A stretch of 64,000 nucleotides of DNA from Candidatus Omnitrophota bacterium (GTDB lineage Bacteria > Omnitrophota > Gorgyraeia > Gygaellales > UBA12090), in NCBI GenBank assembly GCA_030674475.1, contig JAUSCZ010000035.1:6432-70431 (forward strand). Direction: 5' to 3'. Numbering within the stretch: the stretch's first letter is position 1; each line of letters starts with the position of its first letter. The position numbers and the translations under genes are program-made. Shown one piece after another: positions 1 through 63,757 of this stretch. The notes below the pieces were generated by a model that saw nothing but the letters and a program-made list of their open reading frames with translations, was not told where the DNA came from and did not search any database.

Positions 1-720
1 TTCTAAGTTAGTGTTGGCGCTTAACTCATAGCCCGCGTTTATGCCGCCTAACGTTGTATCGTCATTTAAGGTAGAAACATTTTCCGCAATCTTGGCATAG
101 ATTAAATCCAGGATTAAAGGATTGTAATCTAACCTGGCGCGGATGGCATCAAAAGACTTACGGCTGCTCAAATCGCCTTCGGCTAAACTGGAAGCTAAAG
201 CGATTCCATTGGTATCGGGATCACCCACAATCCAGCCATTACCAAAGCGCAGTTCCTGACGGCCTACGGTCAAGGTCATAGCCGGAGTAAGAAACTCTCT
301 TAAGGTAATAGAAGCTAAATCCAGATCAAATTGCCTTTCAGTAGCGGCAGCGTTTGCTGTAGTGAAACCAATATTTCTATTGCTTCCGGTAGTACCAGTA
401 GCACTATCACCATTCCAGTTTCTCTCATTGATTAACCGGACGCTGGTAGAAACATTATCGGTCAGGTCAGCATCAACTTTTACCCGGGTAATCGAGAGAA
501 AATCGCTCTGGTTATCCTGATTACTGTTTGCTCCTACAGAATTAGCCACACTACTGCTTTTATCTAAACTGCTTTTATCTAAATCCAAATTGCTACGGGC
601 TACCCCGGACACATTAATATCACCGCTGATCTTTACATTTTGCACCGCGGCAAATGCCGGCAGAGCCACAAAGCCTGCTAAGGCCACTAAGCATAAACCT
701 AATCCTATGCGTCTTACCAT
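1..720 (-). CDS. Partial (C-terminus off window) outer-membrane porin-like secreted protein; start codon at 718-720
   Basis: Reverse-strand translation from 720 gives MVRRIGLGLCLVALAGFVALPAFAAVQNVKISGDINVSG..., i.e. a signal peptide followed by alternating beta-strand-like sequence rich in G/S/N/D/T. AGGAGG Shine-Dalgarno lies about 8 nt upstream (reverse complement of 726-731). Not in the ORF track because it runs off the window edge. Confidence 0.5.
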   Translation of the reverse strand, partial: MVRRIGLGLCLVALAGFVALPAFAAVQNVKISGDINVSGVARSNLDLDKSSLDKSSSVANSVGANSNQDNQSDFLSITRVKVDADLTDNVSTSVRLINERNWNGDSATGTTGSNRNIGFTTANAAATERQFDLDLASITLREFLTPAMTLTVGRQELRFGNGWIVGDPDTNGIALASSLAEGDLSSRKSFDAIRARLDYNPLILDLIYAKIAENVSTLNDDTTLGGINAGYELSANTNLE

Positions 721-1228
721 TTGCTTGCCTCCTTTTTGGTTTGTATCTGTATTCCTATTTTCATTAATATGTATTTTCATCTTTTTATTTATTTCCACGC
801 GAGCTATTTAGACTCGCGGATTATTTTTAAAAGACCTTTATATCGTAATGCTGGCTTCCTTGATAGTTACCGGCTTTTGATTTATCATCCTCCTTTTCGC
901 CTGTAAGATTATAACTATCCCAGCACTATAATTGTTCTATTTTTATCATACCGTAGAGGCTTTGTCAAGAGAAAAATGAAAAAATTTGATTTTTCCCCTC
1001 ACCTAACCTCTCCCACAAGGGGAGAGGAAACGGTTACAAAAAAATGATTTTTTATTCTTCCAACCTTTTTTGCTTTCTCTCTTTAGTTATTTTATTTTTA
1101 AGCTCGGCCTCTTCAGCCTCAAGTTGTTTTTCTTTAAGCTCAGGCATTGATGCCACCAGCTCAGCGCATCTGTCCTGGGCCTTTTTTCTCCAGGGGTCAT
1201 CCTCAATTACCTCCCCTACCCCTCCTTG

Positions 1229-1696
1229 TTAAGGAGGGGATAAGAAATCCTCCCTTAAGCCCATCTCCGCTCTCTTGGCCCAATAGGAAACAGCCTTATC
1301 CATTTGGTTTTGGCTTTCGTAAAACAAGGCTAAGTTAGCATACGGCCCGGTAAGCTCCTGATCCAGCTTGATTGCCGTTAAATAGGCCTTCTCGGCAAGT
1401 TCCGGAGAATCCATAGTTTCATGCATTATACCTATATCATTATAAGCGGCGGCTAAGGACGGATCTATTTCTATTGCCTTCTGAAATAAGCTTAGGGCTA
1501 CCTCTATATTTCCCGACTTCTGTAATCTTAAGCCATCCAGGCGATACATTCTGGCCTGTTTTTGAGATTCACTCAGCTTGGTTTCGCTCGCTAAGGGCGG
1601 GTTCGGTTCATCCGCGAAAATAAAACCAGCGCGGAAACTAAAAAAAATGTTTACCGCGCTGATTACCAAAATCATCCGGTAATGTCTTTTCAGCAT
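1229..1696 (-). CDS. TPR-repeat protein with N-terminal signal/TM segment
   Basis: Tetratricopeptide-like helical repeats (AIEIDPSLAAAYNDIGIMHE..., AEKAYLTAIKLDQELTGPYANLALFYESQNQMDKAVSYW). The C-terminal tail reads into a family-A palindromic repeat. Confidence 0.55.
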   Translation of the reverse strand: MLKRHYRMILVISAVNIFFSFRAGFIFADEPNPPLASETKLSESQKQARMYRLDGLRLQKSGNIEVALSLFQKAIEIDPSLAAAYNDIGIMHETMDSPELAEKAYLTAIKLDQELTGPYANLALFYESQNQMDKAVSYWAKRAEMGLREDFLSPP

Positions 1697-2296: not shown

Positions 2297-2428
2297 TCTT
2301 ATCCTCCTTTAATAACCTACTTCAGATCAACGAGGGTCAACGTGTAGTGTAGGGGTCAGCGTAAGCTGACCCTGCAATGTCGCTGCCTTACGGCAGCCGC
2401 TACTATATGAAATGAACATAATTTAGTA

Positions 2429-3076: not shown

Positions 3077-3093
3077 CTTTTAGTTTTTTCTTA

Positions 3094-3149
3094 GTAAGGG
3101 CGGGTTCGAACCCGCCCTTACGATAGTGGGGTTCGAACCCGCCCCTACT
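3094..3149. repeat. Two adjacent family-C palindromes (GGGCGGGTTCGAACCCGCCC type)
   Basis: Perfect inverted repeat gtaagggcgggttcgaacccgcccttac, followed by an imperfect copy agtggggttcgaacccgcccctact. Related copies lie at 5739-5766 and 22369-22399. Confidence 0.6.
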
Positions 3150-3156
3150 GTATTAC

Positions 3157-3229
3157 TGCCCCTGGCAAGAATCGAACTTGCCCACGCGGTTTAGGAAACC
3201 AATGCTCTATCCTTATGAGCTACAGGGGC
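3157..3229 (-). tRNA. tRNA-Arg (anticodon CCU)
   Basis: Reverse complement reads GCCCCTGTAGCTCATAAGGATAGAGCATTGGTTTCCTAAACCGCGTGGGCAAGTTCGATTCTTGCCAGGGGCA. It has a 7-bp acceptor stem, a D-arm GCTC/GAGC, an anticodon loop TTCCTAA (anticodon CCT), a T-arm GCAAG-TTCGATT-CTTGC and discriminator A. CCA is not encoded. One mismatch at the top of the anticodon stem. Confidence 0.7.
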
Positions 3230-3466
3230 GGGAATACATCGTTTTAGGCGCTCTCTATTAAATCCTGATTTTAAAGCTTTTTCACGTGCTCTGGCAGCTT
3301 TACGTGAATCTAATTCTTCGTAACGCAGTAAAACCCATGGTTTAAAAAATTTTGTAGATTTTGTTTTTCCAGCATTATGTTCTTTTATTCTCGTGTTAAG
3401 ATTTTGAGTTAATCCTATATATATTCTATTATGCTTAACAGATCGCAATACATATACATAGTACAT
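3191..3466 (-). CDS. Small GIY-YIG nuclease-superfamily protein (COG2827/UPF0213-like)
   Basis: MYYVYVLRS...RIYIGLTQNLNTRIKEHNAGK..TKFFKPWVLLRYEE matches the GIY-YIG / URI-domain small-protein signature. The C-terminal 13 codons overlap the tRNA-Arg gene. Confidence 0.7.
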   Translation of the reverse strand: MYYVYVLRSVKHNRIYIGLTQNLNTRIKEHNAGKTKSTKFFKPWVLLRYEELDSRKAARAREKALKSGFNRERLKRCIPAPVAHKDRALVS

Positions 3467-3510
3467 TTTATTTTATAGAGCCACTGCTCCCTGCCTGCCG
3501 GCAGGCAGGT

Positions 3511-3534
3511 ATCCTTATGAGCTACAGGGGCGGG
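3511..3534. repeat. Direct repeat of tRNA-Arg 5' end (24 bp) flanking the GIY-YIG ORF
   Basis: atccttatgagctacaggggcggg at 3511-3534 is identical to 3209-3232 (tRNA nucleotides 1-21 plus 3 flanking nt). Confidence 0.7.
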
Positions 3535-3537
3535 CGG

Positions 3538-4098: not shown

Positions 4099-4099
4099 A

Positions 4100-4152
4100 A
4101 CTACTTTTCTTACCCCTCCCCGCCTCCCCTTGGTAAGGGGAGGATTTCTTCC
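4100..4152. repeat. Family-A palindromic element (CCCCTCCCCGCCTCCCC-TTGGTAA-GGGGAGG...)
   Basis: cttacccctccccgcctccccttggtaaggggaggatttcttcccc. Related copies at about 985-1032, 1196-1258, 5047-5100, 5108-5178 (inverted), 11738-11786, 15786-15870 (two tandem copies) and 62816-62862. Confidence 0.7.
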
Positions 4153-4179
4153 CCGCTTGAAATTCCAAAAAACTATGAA

Positions 4180-5034: not shown

Positions 5035-5046
5035 TATTATCTCCTG

Positions 5047-5178
5047 GTCTTAAATTACCTCCCCTACCCCTCCTTGTAAAGGAGGGGATAAGAAATCTTC
5101 CTCTTAGTACCGCCGCTGGCGGGGCAAGCAGGGCGGGGAAGAAATCCTCCCCTTACCAAGGGGAGGCGGGGTGGGGTT
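5047..5178. repeat. Two family-A palindromic elements in opposite orientation
   Basis: aattacctcccctacccctccttgtaaaggaggggataagaaatcttcc, then ggggaagaaatcctccccttaccaaggggaggcggggtggggtt (reverse complement of the 4100 copy). Confidence 0.7.
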
Positions 5179-5217
5179 AAAAAAGTGGCTTTACAGTAAA
5201 CGAATTAATTTACCCAA

Positions 5218-5820
5218 TCAAAACTTTTCCCGGCTCGGTCGGGATCCCGATACTGCGTCGGGAAAAGAACCTAATTTATTAATAACCCAGCTGGTTTTTT
5301 TGAGTTCTTCCCATTGGACTGGCGAAGACAGCCCTCCCCAGGAAGCAATCAAAAGAGATATCCGGATAATCCAGCCTAAGGTGTTTATTTCTTTATGCAA
5401 GGCTACAGATAAAATTATATTGGTGATAATCGCGCTTAAGACAATAAAACTGCCGGTTTGGACCGGCAAGAAATACAATTCTTTCTTTAAGCCCTGGGCA
5501 TTATCCACCAGCGCGCTGGTTTTGGCGCAGGTGGTTATCTTATCCTGCCAGGAATAAAAAAGCCTGGAGATTTTTTTTACTACCGCGCTATTCTCTAAGA
5601 TTGCCGGATTAGGCTGGTCGTTTATCTCGGTTATCCTGCCTAAAAAACTGTATCTGAAATTGGTCTTGGTTCCTTGCCAAAACCGCTTGAGTGTTTTATG
5701 AATTTGACTGTTTTGGTATATTTTATCAAACCTGGATTCCAGTAGGGGCGAGTTCGAACCCGCCCCTCCAACGATGTTTTTTATAGTCCGGATTGTCTGG
5801 CTGCTCTGAGTAAGGTTCAT
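5218..5820 (-). CDS. Hypothetical membrane protein; N-terminal region contains an in-frame family-C palindrome
   Basis: TM-rich C-terminal half. Residues IVGGAGSNSPLLES are encoded by the palindrome at 5739-5766. The start codon is uncertain. Confidence 0.35.
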   Translation of the reverse strand: MNLTQSSQTIRTIKNIVGGAGSNSPLLESRFDKIYQNSQIHKTLKRFWQGTKTNFRYSFLGRITEINDQPNPAILENSAVVKKISRLFYSWQDKITTCAKTSALVDNAQGLKKELYFLPVQTGSFIVLSAIITNIILSVALHKEINTLGWIIRISLLIASWGGLSSPVQWEELKKTSWVINKLGSFPDAVSGSRPSREKF

Positions 5821-5825
5821 ATAAA

Positions 5826-6497
5826 TTATTTTTGTTTTTGTTTTGTTTCGCCTTGAGAAGATTCAATCATCCTGATTCTTTCTTTTAGGATGCCGATCTC
5901 CTGGTTCAGGAGGGATATTTTTTGCTCTAAGGGCATAAGCGCATCTTTTATCTTATCGCCGGCTTCCGGCGCTACGACCACGCCCGCCACAGGCAGATAC
6001 AACGCCTCTAATTTATACTTAGCGCTGATAAAATCAATCATAGAATTGGCTTTAATTGGTTTTCCTTTATAGTATAAGACATTATCCTTAAATTCCGCTT
6101 TTATTCTAAGCAGAGCGGGAATTTTCTTGAGCACCGGGTCGTCCTTAATTAATTTTTGTTGTTCTCCCAGATCAATCTCGTAAGCTACAGGGACAGCTTT
6201 GCCTAAAGAAATAATCTCGGCGATAACCTCGCCTTTTTCATTTACTTCCCGATCCCCTTTTGCAATGAGCCTGGCAGTTTCCGGATCCAGCTTATTTAAA
6301 ATAAAATTAAGCTCGGTTTCGATAAATGTTTTAGGAATTTCAACTGCCGGCACAGGCGTATTCTGGGGAGGTTTTTTATTAAAGATTTTATAGCCGAAGT
6401 AAAACATCGGGGTTAGGCAAAGAAAAAACAAAAGCACCAGAAAATCAATCACATTTATCTTGCCGAATAATTTTCCTTTTTCGTCAATAATTTTCAA
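5826..6497 (-). CDS. DUF4330-like membrane-anchored protein with C-terminal coiled coil (TTG start)
   Basis: N-terminus MKIIDEKGKLFGKINVIDFLVLLFFL resembles the DUF4330 family. TTG start preceded by GGAGA. The leader carries a duplicated palindromic motif. Confidence 0.45.
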   Translation of the reverse strand: MKIIDEKGKLFGKINVIDFLVLLFFLCLTPMFYFGYKIFNKKPPQNTPVPAVEIPKTFIETELNFILNKLDPETARLIAKGDREVNEKGEVIAEIISLGKAVPVAYEIDLGEQQKLIKDDPVLKKIPALLRIKAEFKDNVLYYKGKPIKANSMIDFISAKYKLEALYLPVAGVVVAPEAGDKIKDALMPLEQKISLLNQEIGILKERIRMIESSQGETKQKQK

Positions 6498-6722
6498 CTG
6501 AAAGTCTCCTTACAAGTGCGATAAATCGCGCCGCTACACGACACGGACGATTCAAGCTCTATTTTCATACTCATTGGTGCCTCGCCTTTGGCGGGGCATG
6601 ACTGTTTCAACTAAAAATCTCCTCTTAAGCGCGATAAATCGCGCCGCTACGGAACGCGGATAACCCAAACTCTATTTTCATCCTCATTGGTGCCTCGCGG
6701 ACAACGGGGGATGATTATTTTA
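6497..6722 (-). repeat. Tandem duplication (two units of about 110 bp) of the 5' leader/start region, each with the GTAGCGGCGCGATTTATCGCGC palindromic motif plus Shine-Dalgarno plus TTGAAA
   Basis: Two aligned units on the minus strand. They share GCGAGGCACCAATGAG(G/T)ATGAAAATAGAG...GTAGCGGCGCGATTTATCGC(G/A)C...AGGAGA...AGTTGAAA. A third copy of the palindrome lies at 56283-56305. Confidence 0.65.
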
Positions 6723-6723
6723 T

Positions 6724-7536
6724 TTAACCTTCCTTTTCCTGGGCTGATACTAACTTACGCAGTTTTTTAAGAGCTATCTTTTCAATCTGCCTTATCCTCT
6801 CCCGGGAAACATTTAGTTTTTTGGCTATCTGGGCCAGGGTATGCTGTTTCTCATCCTGCAGGCCAAAACGCAAATCCAAGATCCTGCGTTCGCGCTCAGT
6901 CATATGGTCCAGGAGGCCGCTTATCCTTTCTTTGTCCATAACCTTGGAGATTTTTTCTTGCGGGGATTCGGCATTGGTATCCTCAACCATATCCCTAACC
7001 TTATCCTCCCCTTCTTCCCCGATAGGGGCCTCTAAAGAAGAGGTTTTGGAGACCCAAGAGCTTACCTGTTTGAGTTTCTTCACGGTAACCTTCATTGCCT
7101 TGGCCAACTCATCATCGTTAGGCAGGCGGCCTAATTTCTGGGACAGCGACTCATTAGTCTTTTTCCACTTGTAAATCGTCTCACCCATATACACCGGCAG
7201 GCGAATAAGCCGGGATTGATCCGAGATGGCCCTGCCGATGGCCTGCCTTATCCACCAGGCGGAATAAGTGGAAAAACGGAACCCCCGAAGCGGGTTAAAC
7301 TTATCCACTGCCCGCATCAAGCCCATATTTCCTTCCTCAATCAAATCCATAAGCGGCAGGCCAAAATAAGCATAGCGCTTGGCAATATTGATTACGATCC
7401 GCAGATTCGCGCGGATCATTTGTTTACGCGCCTCTTTATCTCCCCGCTTTACCTTTTTGGCTATCTCCAGCTCTTCCTTAGGGGTAAGCAGGGGAATATT
7501 ACGGATATCTTTCAGATAAGCTTTAAGTGATTCCAT
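6724..7536 (-). CDS. Sigma-70 family RNA polymerase sigma factor (RpoD/RpoS-type, regions 1.2-4)
   Basis: Region 2 motifs DLIEEGNMGLMRAVDKF and TYSAWWIRQAI. Region 4 HTH TLAQIAKKLNVSRERIRQIE. Confidence 0.8.
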   Translation of the reverse strand: MESLKAYLKDIRNIPLLTPKEELEIAKKVKRGDKEARKQMIRANLRIVINIAKRYAYFGLPLMDLIEEGNMGLMRAVDKFNPLRGFRFSTYSAWWIRQAIGRAISDQSRLIRLPVYMGETIYKWKKTNESLSQKLGRLPNDDELAKAMKVTVKKLKQVSSWVSKTSSLEAPIGEEGEDKVRDMVEDTNAESPQEKISKVMDKERISGLLDHMTERERRILDLRFGLQDEKQHTLAQIAKKLNVSRERIRQIEKIALKKLRKLVSAQEKEG

Positions 7537-10401: not shown

Positions 10402-11712
10402 TTAGTGCAGCTTATTATTAAAATATTCCTTTAATTTATCTACTGAAATCCGTTCCTGCAACATCGTATCCCTGTCTCGCACCGTAACCTGCTTGTCTTC
10501 TAATGATTGCACATCCACGGTCAGACAAAATAAAGTTCCCACCTCGTCCTGCCGGCGGTAAAGTTTGCCGATGGCCGCGGTGTCATCATACACGCAGGCA
10601 AAAGACCCGCGCAAATCCTGGTAAATCTTTTTGGCCAGCTCCACAATTTCCGGCCGGTTCTTTAGCAAAGGCAGGACTGCCGCCTTTGTAGGAGCTAATT
10701 CCTTGGAAAACTTAAGGACCACCCGGGTTTCATCCTTCACCTTTTCCTCATAATAGGCATCCACCAGGAATGCCAGGGCCGCCCTATCCACGCCTCCCGA
10801 AGGCTCTATAACATAGGGAACAATCTTCTCCTTAGTGTTGGTGTCAAAATAAGACAATTCTTTACCGGAAAACTTGCTATGTTGAACCAGGTCAAAATCG
10901 CCCCTATTGGCAATCCCTTCTAACTCCGACCATCCAAAGGGAAATTGATACTCTATGTCTGAACAGGCCTTGGCATAATGGGCCAATTCCCCTTGATCGT
11001 GAGGCCGCAGGCGCAGGTTTTCCTTTTTCATTCCCAGCCTCAGATACCAGTCGTAGCGCTCCTGGACCCAATATTCATAATATTTCTTCGACTCCTCGGG
11101 CCGGACAAAATACTCTATCTCCATCTGCTCAAACTCCCGGGTGCGGAAGGTAATATTGCCCGGGGTTATCTCGTTGCGAAAAGACTTGCCAATTTGGGCA
11201 ATGCCAAAGGGGAGTTTTTTCCGGGAGACATCCACAATATTAAGGAAGTTAACGAATATCCCCTGGGCGGTTTCCGGGCGAAGATAGACTAAATTAGCCG
11301 CATCCTCAACCGGACCTTGATAAGTCTTATACATTAAATTGAATATCCGGGCTTCGGTTAAATCCTGGCTCCCGCATTCCGGGCATTTGCCCTGAATATG
11401 ATCAGCGCGCCATCTCTTCTTGCAGTTTCTGCAATCTACCGAAAGGTCGGAGAAATTCTGAGTATGACCGGAGGCCTCCCAGACTTTCGGATGCATCAGG
11501 ATTGCCGCGTCTAAGCCCACCATATCCGCGCGCCCGCGCACATTGGCCTGCCACCAGGCCTCCTTAATATTGCGTTTCAGTTCCGTGCCGTAGGGGCCGT
11601 AATCCCAGGTATTAGCCAAGCCGCCGTAAATCTCCGAACCCTGAAAGATAAAACCCCGCCTCTTGCACAAAGAGACTATCTTTTCCATTAAGTCTGCAGT
11701 ATATTGTGACAT
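10402..11712 (-). CDS. glyQS: Glycine--tRNA ligase (alpha2 dimeric class II type)
   Basis: MSQYTADLMEKIVSLCKRRGFIFQGSEIYGG...TWDYGPYG motif characteristic of GlyRS. Confidence 0.85.
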   Translation of the reverse strand: MSQYTADLMEKIVSLCKRRGFIFQGSEIYGGLANTWDYGPYGTELKRNIKEAWWQANVRGRADMVGLDAAILMHPKVWEASGHTQNFSDLSVDCRNCKKRWRADHIQGKCPECGSQDLTEARIFNLMYKTYQGPVEDAANLVYLRPETAQGIFVNFLNIVDVSRKKLPFGIAQIGKSFRNEITPGNITFRTREFEQMEIEYFVRPEESKKYYEYWVQERYDWYLRLGMKKENLRLRPHDQGELAHYAKACSDIEYQFPFGWSELEGIANRGDFDLVQHSKFSGKELSYFDTNTKEKIVPYVIEPSGGVDRAALAFLVDAYYEEKVKDETRVVLKFSKELAPTKAAVLPLLKNRPEIVELAKKIYQDLRGSFACVYDDTAAIGKLYRRQDEVGTLFCLTVDVQSLEDKQVTVRDRDTMLQERISVDKLKEYFNNKLH

Positions 11713-11737
11713 AAATTCTCAATAATCATTCTAATTC

Positions 11738-11786
11738 CCTCCCCCTTGTGGGGAGGGTTAGGGAGGGGGATTACAAACTAATGTCA
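11738..11786. repeat. Family-A palindromic element (inverted orientation)
   Basis: ttccctcccccttgtggggagggttagggagggggattac. Confidence 0.6.
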
Positions 11787-11806
11787 CGGAGCAGTAGCCT
11801 GAGCCC

Positions 11807-14708: not shown

Positions 14709-15125
14709 TCACACCCGACGCTCAGCCAGAATATCTAAGAATTTCCTGACATCTATTATCTTTATCCCTTCAAATTCAACTAACTTCTTTAGGTGCTTAT
14801 CGCCGCTGATAATGTAATCCGCCTGAGCTTCGATAGCACATTCTAAAAACTTATTGTCTGAAGGGTCTTCTTTTATGACTTTGATTTTTCTGGCAGGAAC
14901 TACAGAAATAGCATTTTTCCTTATCACCTTATCCCAATCCGCGATAATTCCTGGATCAACATTTAGCCTACGCATTACTTTAAGGCTTTCCTGGATGATT
15001 TCTTCTGTGATGAAAAGCTGATACTTCCGGGCCCTCTTCCAGGCTTTGATTACCAAAGAAGGATTACCTGCTTCTACGAGGACACCGGAGATAAAAACAT
15101 TGGTATCAATAACGACTTTCAGCAA
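14709..15125 (-). CDS. PIN-domain toxin (putative toxin-antitoxin toxin component, PIN family)
   Basis: MLKVVIDTNVFISG... with conserved acidic residues. Overlaps the upstream HTH gene by a 2-nt gap. Confidence 0.7.
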   Translation of the reverse strand: MLKVVIDTNVFISGVLVEAGNPSLVIKAWKRARKYQLFITEEIIQESLKVMRRLNVDPGIIADWDKVIRKNAISVVPARKIKVIKEDPSDNKFLECAIEAQADYIISGDKHLKKLVEFEGIKIIDVRKFLDILAERRV

Positions 15126-15126
15126 A

Positions 15127-15417
15127 TTATCTTTCCTCTCGCCTTACTTCTTCAACTGTCTGCTGAATCTTCTGTTCTGTAATCCCTGTTACCTTGCCAA
15201 ACCTTTGACTTCTCTTCAAGAGGTTTTCAAACTCCTGATCCCATCCGCTTTCAACCTCAAGCCATTTGTCAATAATGTCTTTTTTGAAACGCAAAGCTCT
15301 GCCCATCCGGATAACAGGGATTTCCCCCAAATGCACCTTTTTATAAAGGGTCATCTCATTAATCTGGAGATAATCTGCCATCTGTCTTGCGGTCATAATT
15401 TCCTGCATTTGTATCAC
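15127..15417 (-). CDS. Excisionase-family HTH DNA-binding protein (cognate antitoxin of the PIN protein)
   Basis: MTARQMADYLQINEMTLYKKVHLGEIPVIRMGRALRFKKDIIDKWL is an excisionase/HTH_17 motif. Lies immediately upstream of the PIN gene. Confidence 0.65.
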   Translation of the reverse strand: MIQMQEIMTARQMADYLQINEMTLYKKVHLGEIPVIRMGRALRFKKDIIDKWLEVESGWDQEFENLLKRSQRFGKVTGITEQKIQQTVEEVRREER

Positions 15418-15662: not shown

Positions 15663-16736
15663 TCAAGAATTTGTGTTTAAATAATAATTTGACCTTTTGC
15701 CTCTTTTAAACAGCTGATACCCTAAGCCGGCAATCATCGCGGCGTTGTCCAGGGTAAGTCCTTTACCGGGAAAATAAACCTTTATATTTTTTAACCCCTC
15801 CCCGCCTCCCCTTGTTAAGGGGAGGATTTCTACCCCTCCCCGCCTCCCCTTGGTAAGGGGAGGATTTCTTGATTCGGCCTCTTCTTTGAATTTGTTTCTC
15901 AGGTAATTATTCGCCGCCACCCCGCCTCCAATAACCAGCGTATTAATTTTATGGCGCTCACAGGCCAAGAAGGACTTTTCAATCAGCGCCTCAACCACTG
16001 CTTTTTGAAAACTTGCCGCCAAATCCGCGGCTTGGGGCTTGCGGCTGGTAACCTGTGACTTGTAGAGGACTGCCGTCTTGATGCCGCTAAAGGAAAACCC
16101 CAAATCGCTGGGGCCCTGGCAGGAAAAGCGAAAACCCTTAGAGTCCCCTTCCCTGGCCAATTTTTCAATCACCGGGCCGCCGGGATAACCCAGGCCCAAA
16201 ATCTTGGCTACCTTATCAAAGGCCTCACCAGCGGCATCATCGGCGGTAGAGCTTAATTGCTTAAAACGAAAATCGCGCTCAACCAAAAATAAATTAGTAT
16301 GCCCCCCGGAAACCACCAGGCCCACAAAAGGGAGCGCGGGAAGCCGGAGCCTATCTTTAACGTCAGCGCCGGATAAAAAGCTGGCATATAAATGCGCCTC
16401 TAAATGATTAACCCCGATAAGCGGTTTCTGAAGAGCCAGGCTTAAGGCCTTAGCAAAAGATATTCCCACTAAAAGAGAGCCGATCAAACCCGGGGATTGA
16501 GTAACACAGATTAAATCCATATCGCTGAGCTTTTGACAAGCCGCCTCCAGAGCTTTTCTTGCGGTTATGGTTATTGACTCGATATGCGCCCGGAAGGCGA
16601 TCTCCGGGATTATCCCTTGGTATTTCCGGTGCTCTTTTAAGCTGGAGGCAATAATATTAGAAAGAACATATCTCCCGTCCTTAACTACAGCCACCGAAGT
16701 TTCGTCGCAGGAAGTTTCAATACCTAAAGAAAGCAT
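15663..16736 (-). CDS. tsaD: tRNA N6-adenosine threonylcarbamoyltransferase TsaD, with an in-frame insertion of two family-A palindromic elements near the C-terminus
   Basis: MLSLGIETSCDETSVAVV...HLEAHLYA Kae1/TsaD signature. The insertion ESRNPPLTKGRRGGVEILPLTRGGGEGL is encoded exactly by the palindromes at 15786-15870, just before the conserved LDNAAMIAGLGY C-terminus. Confidence 0.85.
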   Translation of the reverse strand: MLSLGIETSCDETSVAVVKDGRYVLSNIIASSLKEHRKYQGIIPEIAFRAHIESITITARKALEAACQKLSDMDLICVTQSPGLIGSLLVGISFAKALSLALQKPLIGVNHLEAHLYASFLSGADVKDRLRLPALPFVGLVVSGGHTNLFLVERDFRFKQLSSTADDAAGEAFDKVAKILGLGYPGGPVIEKLAREGDSKGFRFSCQGPSDLGFSFSGIKTAVLYKSQVTSRKPQAADLAASFQKAVVEALIEKSFLACERHKINTLVIGGGVAANNYLRNKFKEEAESRNPPLTKGRRGGVEILPLTRGGGEGLKNIKVYFPGKGLTLDNAAMIAGLGYQLFKRGKRSNYYLNTNS

Positions 16737-17666: not shown

Positions 17667-17761
17667 TACCTCTCCTTTTAAAAATAAGGTTTCGTGTACC
17701 GTGTGCCGTTTACGGTGTACGGTAAACGGTTAGCGGTTAACGGTAAACGCGGCATTCATTA

Positions 17762-22225: not shown

Positions 22226-22332
22226 TCTTGAATTATAACACCGCTTACTATAGCTGTCAAAGTAAAAAACCCTCGATAAGTAACGCGTCAGCCAACGGGA
22301 GGAAATCTCCCCTCACCCTGAAAATCCCCCTC

Positions 22333-22399
22333 CCTGCCTGCCGGCAGGCAGGGTTTGGCTTTCAATATAGTAGGGGCAGGTTCAGAACCTGCCCCTACT
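22333..22399. repeat. Composite of a family-B palindrome (CCTGCCTGCCGGCAGGCAGG) and a family-C palindrome variant
   Basis: ccctgcctgccggcaggcaggg at 22333-22353. agtaggggcaggttcagaacctgcccctact at 22369-22399. Other family-B copies at 1766-1785, 3489-3509, 13690-13712 and 15554-15569. Confidence 0.65.
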
Positions 22400-28128: not shown

Positions 28129-28307
28129 TATTGTGTGACACTCGTGTCCAAATTAGCTATTACTTATCGACGAGAAATATGTTTTGAGATATCGAATTTG
28201 TCATACCCGCGAAAGCGGGTATCCAGAAAATACTCTCGTCGTGGATTCCCGCTTTCGCGGGAATGACAGCGGCTAATTTGGACAGCAATGATTGTGTGAC
28301 TATTGTT
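28129..28307. repeat. Large nested palindromic structure containing family-D hairpins, flanked by a 10-bp direct repeat attgtgtgac
   Basis: Inverted pairs tgtccaaattagc/gctaatttggaca, cgacgaga/tctcgtcg, and gtcATACCCGC-GAAA-GCGGGTATcc ... ggATTCCCGC-TTTC-GCGGGAATgac. A related family-D unit lies at 57655-57722 inside cbiA. Confidence 0.6.
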
Positions 28308-56278: not shown

Positions 56279-56310
56279 CGTTCTCCTTTTACGCGCGATA
56301 AATCGCGCCG

Positions 56311-56994
56311 CTACAGTGTCGTACCTATGTTTTCTCTTATCTTATCCGCGACAATATCAGCTATGCGGCTGTCTTCGCCTAAGTTTTTGGTATAGATAAA
56401 ACGGACCTCCGGATACTTCTTCTTCTCCTGCTCAATTATTTCCGGGATATCCCGACTGACGTGATTGCCCACAAAAAGAAAAAAAGGAATAATAATTATC
56501 CTGCGGCAACCGGCCTTAGCCAGCTTTTCTAAGCTCTGGCCTAAATCAGGTTTGGCCAACTGTAAATAAGCCGGATATATTTTGGATAATCCCAAAGTCC
56601 GTTTTAAACCATTTATAATCTCCGGGATCAAGGCATTGGCCTTCTTTAATCTGCTGCCATGGCCCAGGACCACAACCCCGGTTTGTTTATCCGAGAAGGT
56701 TTTACTTCTCGCTTTAGCCACGGGGATATCTTTTCTTAAATAGCTGCCATGTTCGCTGATCAAGCGATAAATACGGTCAACTGTTTTTCTTTGGTGTATC
56801 CAGCCGCAGTCTTTGCAGGACCAGATCTTTTTATTAAGCCTTGAAGAATAGACATAGCGGCCCAGGCCTTCTTCTTGGCAGGGGTAGAATGGGCAGTAGC
56901 AAAAGGTGCAGTCTTCCAAATCCTCGTGGCAGGGGAAATAACTACAGGCATTATTTACCCTGAGTAAAGTCGAAGGGTTTGTTCTTTTAATCAT
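56311..56994 (-). CDS. cbiX: Fusion of an N-terminal Cys-rich (zinc-finger-like) domain with a short CbiX-type sirohydrochlorin cobaltochelatase
   Basis: N-terminus has 9 Cys in about 60 aa (CSYFPCHEDLEDCTFCYCPFYPC...CKDCGW). The C-terminal about 120 aa has the CbiX signature VVLGHGSR...IIIPFFLFVGNHV. Confidence 0.65.
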   Translation of the reverse strand: MIKRTNPSTLLRVNNACSYFPCHEDLEDCTFCYCPFYPCQEEGLGRYVYSSRLNKKIWSCKDCGWIHQRKTVDRIYRLISEHGSYLRKDIPVAKARSKTFSDKQTGVVVLGHGSRLKKANALIPEIINGLKRTLGLSKIYPAYLQLAKPDLGQSLEKLAKAGCRRIIIIPFFLFVGNHVSRDIPEIIEQEKKKYPEVRFIYTKNLGEDSRIADIVADKIRENIGTTL

Positions 56995-58454
56995 CGGCTC
57001 TCGTGATAGCTTTTACAGTTTCTTATAAAATTCCGAACCAGGTTAAGGTTTGAGGCGAAATGCAGATGGGCGTAGCTGGCCAAGACATTTTTGTAAATTA
57101 AGCCGTCATAAAAAATCTTATCTTTATGCTTTGTTACCTTGTAAGCAAACTCAATGCCCTTTGGTAAAGCATCAAGATATGACCAGTGAAAGGTATGGGC
57201 GCGAATTTTATCACCTGCCCTGCTTAAGATATTATTTTTGACGACCTCAATATCAATATACCCTAATGCCTGCAATTTGCGCGCCATTATCGCGGAACAC
57301 TTAAAAATACCAGACATGGGAAAGCTTTTTTTCTTAAAATTAACGAGACGCTTCACCAAATACATTAAACCTCCACATTCGGCATATATTGGTAACCCCT
57401 CCTCCGCGCGCTGATGCGTCTCCTGTCTAAGGCTTATATTCTTGGCTAACCTCTCGGCAAAAAGCTCCGGGTAGCCGCCGCCGATATACATACCGTCTAT
57501 CCCTTGGGGTAAAGATTTATCCTTAAGCGGACTGAATTCCACCAGACGCGCTCCTAAAGCTTCCAGAATATCCAGATTATCCTGGTAATAGAAATTAAAG
57601 GCCTTATCCCTGGCAATGGCGATGGTAACTTGTATTGCGTCAGTTGAATTTAATATCTTGTCATTCCCGCGAAAGCGGGAATCCAACTGTATAGATTCCC
57701 CGGTCAAGCCGGGGAATGACAAATTAACCGCCGCTAATCCCGGCGCCTGTTTGCTTATTTTTATTATGCGCCGCAGGTCTATATTTTTCTCCACCAAAAC
57801 GCGTAATTTAGCATATAAACCTGTATCCAGTTTTTTCTCTCCGGCCGGCACCAGGCCCAGGTGCCTCTCGGGAAGCCTTATCCCCGCATCCTTGGGCAAA
57901 AACCCCAATACTGGAATTCTCGTCTTTTTTTCAATTGCCGATTTGGTAAAATGATAATGGTTTGGGCTTCCTATATTATTCAGGATTACCCCGGACAGAT
58001 TCACCTTTTTATCAAACTCTTTACAGCCTAAGACTATTGCCGCCGCGCTCCGGGAAAACGAGGCGGCGTTTAAGACCAGGATCACCGGCGCGCCCAATAT
58101 CTTGGCTAAATGCGCGGTTGAGCCGTATTCCGTATCCCGGAAACCGTCATAAAGCCCCATCACCCCTTCTATAACCGAGATATCCGCTCCCTTGGCGTTT
58201 CTGGTAAATAACTCTAAGATTGCCCCCGGCTGGATCAGCCAGGAGTCCAGATTCCGGCTGATCCTGGCGCAGACCGCGCTATGCTGCATCGGGTCCAGAT
58301 AATCCGGCCCAGCCTTAAAAGGCTGAACCCGCAAGCCCATCTTGCGCAAGGCCAGCATCACCCCTAAAGTTAAGGTGGTCTTTCCGCTTCCGCTTTGGGT
58401 AGCGGCAAAGACTATCCGAGGACACCCGTCGGGTGTCTTTTTTAAGGTTTTCAT
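56991..58454 (-). CDS. cbiA: Cobyrinate a,c-diamide synthase with an in-frame family-D palindromic insertion between the ATPase and glutaminase domains
   Basis: N-terminal P-loop VFAATQSGSGKTT. C-terminal GATase (CGGLMYL). Residues GLTGESIQLDSRFRGNDKILNSTDA are encoded by the palindrome pair at 57655-57722. Confidence 0.8.
   Translation of the reverse strand: MKTLKKTPDGCPRIVFAATQSGSGKTTLTLGVMLALRKMGLRVQPFKAGPDYLDPMQHSAVCARISRNLDSWLIQPGAILELFTRNAKGADISVIEGVMGLYDGFRDTEYGSTAHLAKILGAPVILVLNAASFSRSAAAIVLGCKEFDKKVNLSGVILNNIGSPNHYHFTKSAIEKKTRIPVLGFLPKDAGIRLPERHLGLVPAGEKKLDTGLYAKLRVLVEKNIDLRRIIKISKQAPGLAAVNLSFPGLTGESIQLDSRFRGNDKILNSTDAIQVTIAIARDKAFNFYYQDNLDILEALGARLVEFSPLKDKSLPQGIDGMYIGGGYPELFAERLAKNISLRQETHQRAEEGLPIYAECGGLMYLVKRLVNFKKKSFPMSGIFKCSAIMARKLQALGYIDIEVVKNNILSRAGDKIRAHTFHWSYLDALPKGIEFAYKVTKHKDKIFYDGLIYKNVLASYAHLHFASNLNLVRNFIRNCKSYHESR
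57655..57722. repeat. Family-D double-hairpin palindromic element inside cbiA
   Basis: gtcATTCCCGC-GAAA-GCGGGAATcc...gATTCCCCGG-TCAA-GCCGGGGAATgac. A related copy lies at 28200-28265. Confidence 0.7.
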
Positions 58455-61201: not shown

Positions 61202-62678
61202 TTATAATTCTCTCTAATTCTTTCATATCCATATTATTCTCCACCAAATCCGCCAGCTTCTCAAACTCCGCGTCTAAGTTAATCCCCGAAGCCCTGGCTT
61301 TAAGCGGCAGGCCTTTCTTCATCCGGAGCTTATTCAGGATAAGATTACGAAAACCCGGCTGATCAAATACCCCATGCAGATAACTGCCGTAGACCCGGCC
61401 GTCGTTTGACACTGCCCCGTCGTTGTAGCTTTTACCTGAAATATCCGTAACCTCAAAAAGCGCCTTCTGCCCATTTAAACGGTTGGTCAATCCATGATGA
61501 ATTTCGTATCCGCGGACCCGGATATTTTTCCGCAACATCCTCCCCTTTACCCGGCGCAGGATTTTTTCTTTCCCGAAAGAAGTTTCTACCTTTAATAATC
61601 CTATCCCCCGGATTTCCCTTAAATCGGATTCAACACCCAGAGGATCAACTATTTTAACCCCCAGCATCTGAAACCCTCCGCAGACCCCGAAAATAAGCGC
61701 GCCCTGCTGATGCGATTGTTTTATTACCTGGGTTAAACCGGAATTATGCAGATAGCGCGTATCTCCCAGGGTATTCTTGCTCCCCGGGATAATCAGCATA
61801 TCCGCGTCTTCCAAATCCTTCTTCCCCTGGGCATAACTTAAATCCACATCGCTTTCATAAGCCAGGCTGTCAAAATCGGTAAAATTAGAGATGTGCGGCA
61901 ATTTTAACACTGCTATTTTTAGGGGATGCCCGGTTTTGTTTTTCTTATTCTCAATATTCGCCGAGTCTTCTTCCGGGATCAAGATATCCTTAAAATAAGG
62001 AATAACCCCGCAGACCTTCTTGCCGGTAACTTTTTTAATATACTCCAGTCCGCTCTTTAAAAGCCTTTTATCTCCCCGGAATTTATTAATAATCAGGCCT
62101 TGTATCCGGCGGCGCGATCTCTCCGGCAAAAGGGCGAGGGTGCCGTATAGAGAGGCAAAGACCCCGCCTTTATCTATATCCCCGGCCAGCAACACCGGGC
62201 TTTGGGCATAGTCCGCGATTTTGAGATTGGCGATATCGTGGCTGGAGAGGTTTATCTCCGCGGGACTGCCTGCCCCCTCCATAATCACCAGGTCATAATC
62301 CTTCCTTAGCCGATCCAAAGAGTCAGTAACCGCGCCCCAAATCCTGGCCTTAAGATTTTTATACTGCAGGGCGGAGTATTTTCCTATCGGCCTGCCCCGC
62401 AAAATCACCTGGGCCATCGCGTTGCTTGAAGGCTTTAAGAGCACCGGGTTCATATCCACATCCGGCTCAAGACGGGCGGCCTGGGCCTGAACCACCTGGG
62501 CCCGGGCAATCTCCCCGCCGTCTAAGGTAACATAGGAATTTAAAGACATATTCTGGGCCTTAAACGGACAGACCCGCAAACCCCGCCTCAAAAATATACG
62601 GCACAAAGCGCTGACCAAAACACTCTTGCCCACCCCAGAGGCAGTGCCCCAAACCATTAAAGTCTTGGCCTGTTTCAC
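61188..62678 (-). CDS. cobQ: Cobyric acid synthase
   Basis: N-terminal P-loop GTASGVGKS plus C-terminal GATase-1 domain. CbiP/CobQ length. Confidence 0.85.
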   Translation of the reverse strand: MKQAKTLMVWGTASGVGKSVLVSALCRIFLRRGLRVCPFKAQNMSLNSYVTLDGGEIARAQVVQAQAARLEPDVDMNPVLLKPSSNAMAQVILRGRPIGKYSALQYKNLKARIWGAVTDSLDRLRKDYDLVIMEGAGSPAEINLSSHDIANLKIADYAQSPVLLAGDIDKGGVFASLYGTLALLPERSRRRIQGLIINKFRGDKRLLKSGLEYIKKVTGKKVCGVIPYFKDILIPEEDSANIENKKNKTGHPLKIAVLKLPHISNFTDFDSLAYESDVDLSYAQGKKDLEDADMLIIPGSKNTLGDTRYLHNSGLTQVIKQSHQQGALIFGVCGGFQMLGVKIVDPLGVESDLREIRGIGLLKVETSFGKEKILRRVKGRMLRKNIRVRGYEIHHGLTNRLNGQKALFEVTDISGKSYNDGAVSNDGRVYGSYLHGVFDQPGFRNLILNKLRMKKGLPLKARASGINLDAEFEKLADLVENNMDMKELERIINAGN

Positions 62679-63757
62679 TCTAACACCTCTTTCAGTCTGG
62701 AGAGCAGTTTCAGGTTCTCTTTTCTGGCGCGCACCGCTACCCGGAAAAAACTTTTATCCAATCCCCGGAAATTGGAACAATCCCTAACCAAAATACCTTT
62801 TAAGGCTAATCTGTCCCTTATTCCCCCTCCCCTAACCCCTCCCGCGCGGGGAGGGGAATTTGTTTGACAAAGGATAAAGTTAGCTGAAGGTCTCCAGACC
62901 TGCAAAGCTCTAAAACCGGATAATTGAGAATAAAGAAATACCTTTTCTTCCTGAATTAATTTATAGGAATCACGGATATACTTTTTATCTTTCAGGAACT
63001 CTCTGGCCGCGGATACCGCCAAGGAATTTACCGGCCAGGGCGGCTGATATTTCTTAAGCCGGGCAATCACCTTAGGATGAGCGATAGCCCCCCCCAACCT
63101 TAAACCGGCTAAAGCAAAGAACTTGGTCATTGAACGCAGGATGATTAACCCCTGGGATTGGACTGCCTCGCCAATCAGGGTGGCTTCCCGCGGGGAATCG
63201 CTAAATTCCATAAACACCTCATCCAGGATCAAGATTACGCCTCTATTTTTTGTTTCCTTCAAAACCATTAAGAGGTCTTTTTTATCCACGGATAGACTGG
63301 TAGGATTATTGGGATTGGCTAAATACAGGGAATCCTTTCCTCTAAGCCCCTTGATTAAACTATCCACATCCAGACTAAAGTCAGCTTTAGGTTTCAAGAA
63401 CGCGGCCTCGCCGGAAGACAGACACGCCGCCTTTTCATATTCGCTGAATGCCGGAACAGGGATAAGCGCCTTCTTCAATCCCAAGGCCCGGGGGATAAGA
63501 TAGATTAAAGACACGGAGCCGTTATCCAGCAGGAGATTTTGCGGCTTCACTCCGTAAAAAGCGGCCAGGTCTTTTCTTAATTCCAAGTATTCGCATTCCG
63601 GATAGTTGTGCGCGCTATCCATAGCCTTAGTTACCGCCCTTTTCACCGCGTAAGGGATGCCTAAAGGATTTATGTTGGCGCTAAAGTCTATAACCGCGCT
63701 CTCCACAAGCGAATACTGTTTTAAGGCCTGCTCTATATTCCCGCCGTGTTCATCCAT
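62675..63757 (-). CDS. cobD: Threonine-phosphate decarboxylase (class I/II aminotransferase fold) with an in-frame family-A palindromic insertion
   Basis: HisC-like PLP fold (SMTKFFALAGLRLG, the Lys of the PLP site). Residues TNSPPRAGGVRGGGIR are encoded by the palindrome at 62816-62862. Confidence 0.7.
   Translation of the reverse strand: MDEHGGNIEQALKQYSLVESAVIDFSANINPLGIPYAVKRAVTKAMDSAHNYPECEYLELRKDLAAFYGVKPQNLLLDNGSVSLIYLIPRALGLKKALIPVPAFSEYEKAACLSSGEAAFLKPKADFSLDVDSLIKGLRGKDSLYLANPNNPTSLSVDKKDLLMVLKETKNRGVILILDEVFMEFSDSPREATLIGEAVQSQGLIILRSMTKFFALAGLRLGGAIAHPKVIARLKKYQPPWPVNSLAVSAAREFLKDKKYIRDSYKLIQEEKVFLYSQLSGFRALQVWRPSANFILCQTNSPPRAGGVRGGGIRDRLALKGILVRDCSNFRGLDKSFFRVAVRARKENLKLLSRLKEVLE

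Follow-up and report, generated by a model that had tools for sequence, protein, structure and literature searches.

The 64-kb stretch of Omnitrophota DNA that we analyzed (the window) contains several families of short GC-rich repeats, which lie between genes and also within conserved reading frames (Table 1). The clearest case is in tsaD. When its product is aligned with the solved T. maritima TsaD, query residues 3-290 correspond to residues 3-282 and query residues 317-355 to residues 283-321. The flanks thus join without a gap at T. maritima residues 282/283, and residues 291-316 are a clean insertion. The match to TIGR03723 ends at residue 291. The flanking AAGAAAT leaves an uncertainty of up to 7 nt in the placement of the insertion. 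A preliminary description of this DNA had recognized two tandem family-A units here, and Tandem Repeats Finder agrees: at 15794-15869 it reports 2.0 copies of a 38-nt period with 97% matches. The translation across the insert, ...EEAESRNPPLTKGRRGGVEILPLTRGGGEGLKNIKVYFPGKGLTLDNAAMIAGLGY, is also as described.

The repeats were further thought to preserve the reading frame in each case. All are in frame and free of stop codons, but a 38-nt unit alone breaks the tsaD frame, and the length reaches 78 nt through two compensating 1-nt differences. In unit 2, a T added after GGGGT changes a would-be TAA to TTA and so restores the frame. The frame then continues unbroken through the conserved DNAAM motif, and dN/dS of the gene relative to five relatives is 0.12-0.18, indicating that tsaD is under purifying selection. 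Judging only from conservation of the frame and of the stop codon, the insert is probably translated. It is predicted to be a disordered surface loop: in the structural model, residues 295-313 have pLDDT <50 and form a coil between a helix (277-289) and a strand (319-321).

Table 1. Repeats and host genes in the window.
Feature	Position	Strand	Details
Family F, triplex-motif-type, near E. coli TMECO design	995..1027	minus	CCTCTCCC cttgt GGGAGAGG tta GGTGAGGGG
Family A' copy	1210..1239	minus	CCCCTCCTT..AAGGAGGGG TA GGGGAGG; provides last residues and stop codon of TPR gene 1229..1696
Further family-B copies	1763-1785; 3487-3509		
Two adjacent family-C GTAG REPs, intergenic	3093..3144	plus	
Family-A copy, intergenic	4112..4143	minus	AAGAAAT on one flank, AAGAAAA on the other
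Family A' copy, intergenic	5058..5087	minus	Not in relative L001
Family-A copy, intergenic	5146..5177	plus	Missing in L001 (73 nt there, 232 nt in the window)
GTAG-tagged REP (family C) in ORF 5218..5820	5742..5766	plus	Read antisense as GAGSNSPLL, 18 codons past the start
Family-E copy, intergenic	11736..11770	plus	Sibling of the cobD copy; not in L001
tsaD	15663..16736	minus	357 aa, intact; TIGR03723 (2e-110) and PF00814
In-frame insertion in tsaD	15789..15866 (approx.)	minus	78 nt, 26 aa, residues 291-316; two tandem family-A units
Family-A core, unit 2	15794..15825	minus	Frame differs from unit 1; read as ILPLTRGGGEGL
Family-A core, unit 1	15832..15863	minus	CCTCCCCTT ACC AAGGGGAGG C GGGGAGGGG T; read as PPLTKGRRGGV
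Family-B palindrome beside family-C REP, intergenic	22330..22399	unassigned	CCTGCCTGCCGGCAGGCAGG; ORF called there has no Pfam match
Family-D inverted pair, REPIN-like, intergenic	28198..28268	unassigned	
GTAG REP, family G	56293..56314	minus	Overlaps stop of 56311..56994; siblings at 6516-6537 and 6629-6650
Family-D composite in CbiA inter-domain linker	57655..57722	minus	Two hairpin modules within an outer inverted repeat; encodes SFPGLTGESIQLDSRFRGNDKI
Family-E copy in cobD (62675..63757)	62822..62856	minus	Encodes SPPRAGGVRGGG

These short hairpins were located with a custom scan; a generic inverted-repeat tool missed them. The 31-nt family-A core pattern has four matches in the window (4113, 5146, 15795, 15833) versus none in 100 shuffles, and the same sequences occur between genes and in frame inside a conserved one, as had been proposed. 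The element follows the formula CCTCCCCTT-NNN-AAGGGGAGG-C-GGGG(A/T)GGGGT, and its ends are sharp and constant. In this lineage, the sequence gained with family A is 39 nt (the 32-nt core together with AAGAAAT), and five of its six frames are open. The hallmark of REPs, an imperfect palindrome of 20-40 nt with a terminal GTAG, is found in family C (AGTAGGGGCGAGTTCGAACCCGCCCC) and family G (GTAGCGGCGCGATTTATCGCGC) and is missing from families A, A', E, F, B and D. Rfam searches (whole window at the gathering threshold; positions 900-6800 at an E-value threshold) identified only one tRNA and a cobalamin riboswitch, with no family over the repeats, and a literature search with the exact nucleotide and peptide strings of the repeats returned nothing relevant.

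Repeats in other host genes differ in how cleanly they were added. In CbiA, the repeat-coded residues (approximately 245-267) lie after the CbiA domain (14-199) and before the GATase_3 domain (277-468), consistent with the linker position suggested earlier. Alignments show that the linker segment is lineage-specific: P0141 is without module 2, and in P0123 and P0125 the whole segment is shorter. The repeats in cobD and near the start of ORF 5218..5820, which had been described as insertions, are in frame and are lineage-specific as well, but both replace ancestral residues and neither is a clean insertion. In CobD, 15 residues substitute for about 11 ancestral loop residues, a net gain of 4 aa; the net gain in ORF 5218..5820 is likewise only 4 aa, and the L001 orthologue reads ARAYNN at the position of GAGSNSPLL. 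At this site, relatives of CobD either lack a repeat or carry other ones. Both the CbiA linker and the CobD loop are hot spots, with different repeats in different relatives. L001 has in-frame inserts of its own: one of 48 nt in GatB and one of 24 nt in GatC, which have an 18-nt sequence in common. We also noted two intragenic cases beyond those listed before, the A' copy at the end of the TPR gene and the GTAG REP at the stop of 56311..56994.

Orthologue and DNA alignments revealed 0, 1 or 2 units at the tsaD site across relatives that are 84-95% identical. Relatives that are 88-89% identical have no insert, others with 84-95% identity have one 39-nt unit, and the two-unit allele is found in the window only. 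The empty site is GCGGC-AAGAAAT-ATAAAG and the filled site is AAGAAAT-core-AAGAAAC. Three assemblies that are independent and derive from different samples have the one-unit allele at exactly this position, and an assembly artefact therefore does not account for the insertion site. The stems of the orthologous single units (in L004, L006 and L005) have decayed, and the two units in the window have not. Another Omnitrophota tsaD (L094) has a family-B-like palindrome in a different loop. In TsaD, CobD and CbiA, presence and absence among orthologues is lineage-specific and coincides with the repeats, as the preliminary description anticipated.

In the purine/pyrimidine repeats, a hairpin precedes a mirror copy of its purine arm. 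Among 123 hairpins with 26 distinct arms, the mean match was 0.80 to the mirror sequence versus 0.69 to the direct sequence and 0.69 to a shuffled arm. The mirror match was greater than the direct match in 16 of the 25 asymmetric arms and less in 2 (Wilcoxon p = 7e-4). This arrangement is that of the known "intrastrand triplex motif" design. The G/C tracts could also be read as G-quadruplexes or i-motifs, but the mirror-repeat pattern is the better supported regularity.

Genomes whose labels span at least eight phyla (Omnitrophota, Patescibacteria, Nitrospirota, Desulfobacterota/Thermodesulfobacteriota, Bacteroidota, Gammaproteobacteria, Acidobacteriota and Nitrospinota) have an identical 32-nt family-A core, unpaired positions included, at unrelated loci. 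The exact core is present in about 30 genomes, and some of these copies are in frame within MurD-, PheT- and RluD-like genes, with identities read from the sequences. Genes are strongly depleted of repeat copies: of the 22 in the window, no more than 6 lie in genes, versus approximately 92% of the window that is ORF (binomial P = 1e-13). In other genomes, 13 of 46 family-A copies are deep within ORFs, versus 69% of random positions (P = 1e-8). Four in-frame insertions had been considered unlikely to be coincidental; the cases are real, but given this depletion they mostly reflect survivorship.

Viral contigs contain no matches to the family-A core, leaving a phage vector without support. No transposase or other mobilizing gene was found beside the copies: neighbor clustering of approximately 85 loci gave no common partner, and neither the window nor the related loci examined showed a RAYT gene. 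A recurrent REPtron-like transposase near family A was considered and rejected, as the clusters contained only redundant loci or similarity among repeat peptides. A single tsaD unit is flanked by AAGAAAT and AAGAAAC, and the empty site has one AAGAAAT. In the Omnitrophota family-A copies, however, the left flank is invariably AAGAAAT and the right flank varies with no covariation. A target-site duplication model was therefore rejected as unproven, and transposition is inferred.

Together, the lineage-specific alleles, the intergenic copies, the three independent assemblies and the positions in loops or linkers indicate that behavior like that of the Rickettsia palindromic elements (RPEs), proposed at the outset, is real. 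The repeats themselves are probably not RPE homologues but short repeats of the REP type and the triplex-motif type. We think it very probable that they are non-autonomous, REP- or MITE-like repeats that survive in genes only when in frame and in tolerant loops. The Omnitrophota genome carries several families of non-coding hairpin repeats of approximately 25-70 nt, some of them GTAG-tagged REPs and others polypyrimidine/polypurine hairpins with a mirror copy of the purine arm. A trans-acting mechanism would copy them to new sites, and most copies landing in genes would be purged by selection. Survivors would be those that add a multiple of three nucleotides, are open in the frame that is used, and occupy a surface loop, linker or terminus. 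Such placement in loops and linkers had been presumed before, and it agrees with the modelled coil in TsaD and the interval between Pfam domains in CbiA. At 39 nt and open in five of six frames, family A would be well suited to survive. The inserted peptide would be a passenger tolerated by the host enzyme and not a functional module, and the same loops would be struck repeatedly, with hairpin modules then gained, lost and decayed. The different frames of the two tsaD units, the decayed stems in relatives and the five open frames argue that the peptide itself is not selected. Removal of the inserts as introns, as inteins or by bypass is unlikely, since every insert is in frame and lacks stop codons, properties that precise removal would not need. 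We are doubtful of a bolder proposal, that family A is a currently active miniature element moving between phyla, with a triplex-capable fold that is the substrate of the mobilizing machinery and a stop-free 13-codon format that colonizes essential genes of small-genome groundwater bacteria and generates new surface loops.

The repeats could instead be non-mobile, arising locally at structure-prone sites through replication slippage, template switching or error-prone repair at triplex or hairpin DNA, in which case the resemblance among family members would reflect a reused constraint or repair template. Several observations are in keeping with such an origin. The mirror architecture covaries across 25 different arms, and motifs of this type are linked to instability in E. 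coli (PMC4666352). The lack of viral copies and of an associated transposase, the 7-nt microhomology AAGAAAT adjoining the tsaD insertion, and the replacements in CobD and ORF 5218 point in the same direction. However, a 32-nt core that is identical at unrelated loci in at least eight labelled phyla implies copying from a template and not independent origins, and the element boundaries are sharp and constant. We consider local origin improbable.

Even less probable, in our estimation, is that the inserts are adaptive. Gly/Arg/Pro-rich peptides such as KGRRGG, RGGGEG and RAGGVRGGG could provide an RNA- or partner-binding loop, or the mRNA hairpin or its GGAGG-like tracts could adjust how well the host mRNA is translated or how stable it is. 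Several hosts do bind RNA (TsaD, and the PheT- and RluD-like ORFs elsewhere, by sequence reading), most of the intragenic family-A copies have the sense orientation (9 versus 4 antisense), and both tsaD units in the window are undecayed. Nevertheless, the same DNA in different frames gives unrelated peptides, the hosts also include MurD-like proteins, CbiA, CobD and hypothetical proteins, and near relatives manage without the tsaD insert or with a decayed hairpin at that site; the TsaD insert is, moreover, predicted to be disordered. RNA folding likewise argues against this possibility. Folded with ViennaRNA, the sense strand of family A does no better than shuffled sequences (z = -0.9 for the mRNA strand of the tsaD insert and -0.5 for an intergenic copy). 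Since shuffled polypurine/polypyrimidine sequences fold just as well, nothing points to a selected mRNA structure. Values below -2.9 were obtained only for copies of families D, C and E (z = -5.1 for the family-D copy in CbiA). Lastly, an assembly or binning artefact, or a decaying tsaD pseudogene, either of which would make the inserts uninformative about protein tolerance, is extremely unlikely: the source assembly is of metagenome type, the exact TsaD protein of the window has no match on record in an exact-protein look-up and the two-unit state is confined to the window, but the one-unit allele occupies the identical site in three independent samples, tsaD is intact through DNAAM and under purifying selection, and a spurious 38-nt duplication would break the frame that the two 1-nt changes preserve.

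These findings bring Omnitrophota and, by way of the family-A core, Patescibacteria and further groundwater lineages within the range of the RPE and intragenic REP phenomenon. They add examples of probably translated repeat DNA in essential enzymes: TsaD, CbiA and CobD here, GatB and GatC in L001, and MurD-, PheT- and RluD-like ORFs elsewhere. They also place in coding sequence a class of triplex-motif repeats that is strictly intergenic in reports from E. coli. For annotation and phylogenomics, such inserts disrupt HMM alignments, inflate the apparent number of lineage-specific "insertions" and seed spurious hypothetical proteins. The natural tsaD alleles with 0, 1 or 2 units are test material for the tolerance of a conserved enzyme to loop insertions.

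The mirror-arm repeats resemble the intrastrand triplex motifs (PIT motifs; ITxF class II), including TMECO of E. coli, whose consensus is CCCTCNCCC N3-6 GGGNGAGGG N3 GGGNGAGGG (Holder 2015, PMC4666352). Both have a C-rich stem, a loop of 3-6 nt, a G-rich stem, a loop of about 3 nt, then another G-rich stem. Membership in TMECO was rejected: even when 3 mismatches are allowed, the window contains no match to the consensus, and among 93 loci there is one exact match (L037). The published motifs are G/C-rich, highly conserved and multi-copy, occur in many bacteria with no association with transposons or phages, and are tied to local sequence variability and genomic instability (PMC4666352). The repeats in the window are similar in their composition, conservation, copy number and occurrence across many bacteria, in lacking a transposon or phage link, and in lying near local variability. 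In contrast, TMECO is reported to be always intergenic in E. coli MG1655 (PMC4666352), whereas the window motif is in frame within essential genes, and its triplex is a predicted one.

RPEs (families RPE-1..10) are palindromes of approximately 100-150 bp that are inserted in frame in Rickettsia genes, including housekeeping genes; there are several families per genome, and the encoded peptide is presumed to be on the protein surface (Ogata et al. 2000, via PMC10969869, PMC3733652). The Omnitrophota repeats are similar in having both intergenic and in-frame copies in unrelated housekeeping genes, a presumed surface peptide, and several families per genome. They are shorter, from 32-39 nt (family A) to approximately 68 nt (family D composite), and on inspection do not resemble RPEs. 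Unlike an RPE, family A does not encode a single conserved peptide, since its copies are read in different frames. The hosts also differ: an obligate intracellular alphaproteobacterium for RPEs, and free-living or epibiotic groundwater Omnitrophota here.

MITEs are typically 70-300 bp with IS-derived terminal inverted repeats and target-site duplications, and in-frame fusions are known (PMC10969869). The repeats described here are similarly small, non-autonomous and translatable within host ORFs, but consist of a single hairpin, with neither an IS parent nor a target-site duplication that can be demonstrated. Intragenic GTAG/CGTC-tagged REPs are 20-40 bp, occur in genes of known function, and are often dimers that encode 20-30 aa in loops or termini; such inserts are argued to persist in flexible linkers and loops (Di Nocera et al. 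2013, PMC3733652). Omnitrophota and Patescibacteria are outside the coverage of that survey (PMC3733652). Families C and G share the GTAG tag, whereas families A, A', E and F have neither GTAG nor CGTC and have an extra mirror arm. Selfish repeats within genes are thus already known from Rickettsia and other bacteria, and the Omnitrophota families are a further case.

The preliminary description reported two tandem family-A units lying in frame in tsaD, and the database comparisons bear this out. A 38-nt unit occurs there in 2.0 copies (15794-15869, 97% identity). The 31-nt core of family A, CCCCTCCCCGCCTCCCCTTGNTAAGGGGAGG (plus strand), has four matches in the window (at 4113, 5146 (minus), 15795 and 15833) and 0 in 100 dinucleotide-preserving shuffles of it. 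The ORF that holds both copies is TsaD (NCBIfam TIGR03723, 2e-110; Pfam PF00814) and is under purifying selection, as indicated by pairwise dN/dS of 0.12-0.18 against five relatives. The TIGR03723 equivalog alignment ends at residue 291, and the broader model TIGR00329 covers residues 4-336 using just 305 model positions, already indicating ~28 extra residues. An alignment of 27 TsaD proteins, in which the nearest database sequences carry an Omnitrophota label, gives 26 extra residues in the window. At the same place, 13 extra residues, SRNPPLAKGMRGGV, are present in P0001 and P0002 (95% identity), and P0006 (84%) has 13 diverged ones, LSNHPLNKGRRKGV. The extra residues are absent from P0003-P0005 (88-89%) and from every more distant sequence of the alignment; the insert is lineage-specific.

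The tsaD alleles were also compared at the DNA level by aligning the fetched contigs that encode them. The empty site is GAAGAGGCC-GCGGC-AAGAAAT-ATAAAG. One-unit alleles read AAGAAAT-core-AAGAAAC-ATAAAA, with a 32-nt core (+39 nt), and the window reads AAGAAAT-core-AGAAAT-core-TAAAAAAT-ATAAAG (+78 nt). The window's two units, spaced 38 nt, are translated in different frames, as PPLTKGRRGGV and then ILPLTRGGGEGL; the frame is restored by an absent A between the units and an additional T after unit 2, which turns the canonical GGG-TAA into GGG-TTA. The one-unit allele was found in three unrelated samples and the two-unit state in the window only. These samples and the compensating 1-nt changes indicate that the insertion site is not an assembly artefact; frame compensations of this kind are unexpected in an artefactual duplication. 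The insertion adjoins an AAGAAAT that was already present as conserved Arg-Asn codons, an arrangement that would be equally compatible with a target preference, a 7-nt duplication, or microhomology-mediated copying.

Relative to the solved TsaD of T. maritima (6NAK, 6N9A), residues 3-290 correspond to 3-282 and residues 317-355 to 283-321. The insertion is clean, with no ancestral residues lost. In an AlphaFold2 model built from the alignment (mean pLDDT 82), the insert is predicted to be coil, with pLDDT <50 at residues 295-313; helix 277-289 precedes it and strand 319-321 follows. The stems of the orthologous single units at three loci of other genomes (L004, L006 and L005) have gained unpaired substitutions, as would be expected of passenger sequence. 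Between tsaD and mgtC there is also a toxin-antitoxin-like pair, PIN_3 (14709..15125) and HTH_17 (15127..15417), that is absent from the syntenic loci L001 and L007 (141 nt vs 944 nt in the window).

Repeat copies within genes and at gene ends in the window
Gene or ORF	Gene position	Strand	Repeat	Repeat position	Remark
tsaD	15663..16736	minus	two tandem family-A copies		357-aa ORF
cbiA	56991..58454		family-D 68-nt composite	57655-57722	
cobD	62675..63757		repeat copy	62822-62856	encodes SPPRAGGVRGGG
ORF	5218..5820		GTAG-tagged REP	5742-5766	read as GAGSNSPLL, 18 codons past start
TPR gene	1229..1696		family-A' copy	1210-1239	gives last residues and stop codon
ORF	56311..56994		GTAG REP		overlaps stop codon

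The CbiA repeat is in the inter-domain linker, as had been proposed. The composite, in which an outer inverted repeat encloses two small hairpins (RNA fold z = -5.1), encodes residues ~245-267, which fall after the CbiA domain (14-199) and before the GATase_3 domain (277-468). It has an intergenic family-D sibling, an inverted pair at 28198-28268. The segment is shorter or different in relatives at 76-80% identity: P0123 and P0125 have just NLSFPR, P0141 has the first module alone, NLSFPGLTGESI, and others have different repeat-like strings (e.g., SFPRKRESRRLDSPVKPGNDR in P0151). The low-pLDDT coil in TsaD and the linker in CbiA agree with the expectation that inserts fall at loops or linkers.

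Two further cases stand in part. CobD does contain a lineage-specific repeat, with an intergenic sibling at 11736-11770, but here the repeat has replaced residues at a hot spot rather than being cleanly inserted. From a conserved Cys to Leu-Arg there are 15 residues in the window vs 11 in repeat-free relatives, comparison with the solved S. enterica CobD leaves a 7-residue gap at the repeat, and at this point other relatives have 20 to >50 residues made up of different repeats. In P0243-P0245 and P0250 (86-90% identical), these 20 to >50 extra residues are a chain of repeat-type peptides (PPPLTPPTSRLG..., SFPRKRES..., VPAKAGI...), which suggests nested insertions. ORF 5218..5820 is the weakest case because its protein has no family assignment in NCBIfam/Pfam profile searches; the REP is indeed read in frame, but the L001 orthologue (73% identity) has ARAYNN at the same place, for a net gain of only 4 residues. 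The two gene-end copies (Table) are additional to the preliminary description. The cobalamin gene cluster also includes a cobalamin riboswitch (RF00174, 56.7 bits; 55394-55567, minus).

In-frame repeat insertion is general in the clade. L001, a syntenic contig from a relative with ~80-93% nucleotide identity to the window, has none of the intergenic copies that the window carries at 5058-5177 and 11693-11797. It has in-frame inserts of its own, one of 48 nt in GatB and one of 24 nt in GatC (opposite window ~20136 and ~22048), that have an 18-nt sequence in common, GGTGAGCGCAGTCGAACC; no member of this family was seen in the window's genes. L067 (GCA_040960315.1) has a 54-nt palindrome, CCCGCCCTTCC...GGAAGGGCGGG, at the CobD/CobQ junction (opposite window 62678), through which its CobQ has 512 aa vs 496 aa, and a different repeat in the CobD hot-spot loop (opposite window 62851). 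In L094, another Omnitrophota tsaD, a different loop has a stretch with CCTGCCTTGCCGGCAGGCAGG, a sequence variant of family B, which is intergenic in the window. Together with the tsaD alleles, this indicates that TsaD was hit independently several times. Separately, L001 lacks a 93-nt intergenic block of the window (17669-17761) with ACGGTAA heptamer repeats (17719-17749) and a hairpin (17706-17729).

Of the ~22 repeat copies that a hairpin scan and family search identified in the window, bona fide genes contain five, two more lie at the 3' ends of genes, and all others are intergenic. Since long ORFs make up ~92% of the window, almost every copy would be expected in a gene if placement were random, and the observed number is below that (binomial P = 1e-13). 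The repeats are strongly counter-selected in genes, and those left are the in-frame, stop-free subset at tolerant places. Given this depletion, we take the improbability of four in-frame insertions, noted in the preliminary description, as a mark of survivorship rather than of targeting. Family A is open in five of six frames and in Omnitrophota adds exactly 13 codons. We regard as established the in-frame, stop-free persistence of repeats in loops and linkers of selected genes, their depletion from coding DNA and the repeated hits at the same loops.

Families A, A', E and F consist of a pyrimidine arm, a 3-5 nt loop, a purine arm, a 1-3 nt spacer and a second purine tract. This second tract is a mirror image of the purine arm, neither a direct nor an inverted copy (e.g., GGGAGAGGA-ttg-AGGAGAGGG and GGGGAGAAGG-gac-GGATGAGGGG). 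In a set of 123 distinct hairpins (26 different arms) taken from the window and the fetched loci, the mirror image had a mean match of 0.80, whereas a direct repeat and composition-matched shuffled arms each scored 0.69. For the 25 asymmetric arms, mirror exceeded direct in 16 and fell below it in 2 (Wilcoxon p = 7e-4; p = 3e-5 vs shuffled arms). The mirror-arm architecture is established, as are the repeat families and their presence or absence at orthologous sites. Holder et al. (2015) catalogued intrastrand triplex motifs of the same design, including the E. coli motif TMECO, CCCTCNCCC N3-6 GGGNGAGGG N3 GGGNGAGGG, a single strand of which forms a triplex in vitro (PMC4666352). TMECO is multi-copy in 262 proteobacterial genomes, has no link to transposons or phages, and is associated with local sequence variability (PMC4666352). 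Its consensus has no match among the window's families; judged by the design of their arms, A, A', E and F are other members of this structural class.

The GTAG tag that marks classical REPs is present in families C and G. Family G also occurs in a 113-nt unit, tandemly duplicated at 6492-6717 (82% identity), each copy with a GTAG REP and a second hairpin; L001 has 65 nt opposite the window's 216 nt. A palindrome of family B adjoins an exact 25-nt duplicate (3510-3534) of the 5' end of tRNA-Arg(CCT) (3157-3229, minus). Duplicate and tRNA flank a 91-aa GIY-YIG ORF (3191..3466, minus; PF01541, 2e-17), and 3157-3534 looks like the site where a small mobile GIY-YIG element inserted at a tRNA gene and duplicated its target.

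The exact family-A pattern CCTCCCCTTNNNAAGGGGAGGCGGGG is present in 58 stretches (L008-L065) of the species-representative genome collection, in genomes labelled, from record titles, as at least eight phyla. The labels are Omnitrophota (UBA12090, nine contigs), several Patescibacteria, Nitrospirota (including a closed Manganitrophaceae chromosome), Deltaproteobacteria/Thermodesulfobacteriota, Bacteroidota (including the isolate Prevotellaceae KH2P17), Gammaproteobacteria, Thermoanaerobaculia and Nitrospina. Although MAG labels may be wrong, this distribution is credible because the isolate and the closed chromosome carry family A. Conservation stops sharply at the edges of a 32-nt block, which ends GGGGT and has unrelated flanks; an AAGAAAT left flank is confined to the Omnitrophota copies and one Parcubacteria copy. 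Of 46 copies with enough flank, 13 are in ORFs that stay open for ≥40 codons to either side, some of which may be spurious, vs 69% of random positions. For three of the clear cases we take the host ORFs, from reading the sequences, to be MurD-like in L027 (Parcubacteria), PheT-like, with several repeats, in L043, and RluD-like in L062. The viral collection contained no family-A copies, and a search for a neighbouring gene common to the family-A loci found none.

We postulate that copies of both the GTAG REPs and the triplex-type families might arrive through trans-acting mobilisation, RAYT-like (by a REP-associated transposase) for the GTAG REPs; alternatively, they could arrive through structure-provoked templated repair. 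The inserts are presumably translated and may be neutral.

The observation is solid and its original interpretation is supported. It is moderately new in the host lineages, in the triplex-type repeats inside coding sequence, and in the identical 32-nt core across phyla. The suggested resemblance to Rickettsia palindromic elements (PMC10969869) applies to behaviour but not to size. Intragenic GTAG/CGTC REPs, known from Opitutus, Thauera, Rickettsia and others and often dimers encoding 20-30 aa (Di Nocera et al., PMC3733652), are alike in behaviour and closer in size. In structure, families A, A', E and F fall into the class of the intrastrand triplex motifs. However, whereas TMECO is always intergenic in E. 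coli MG1655 (PMC4666352), the triplex-type repeats of the window are also found within coding sequence.
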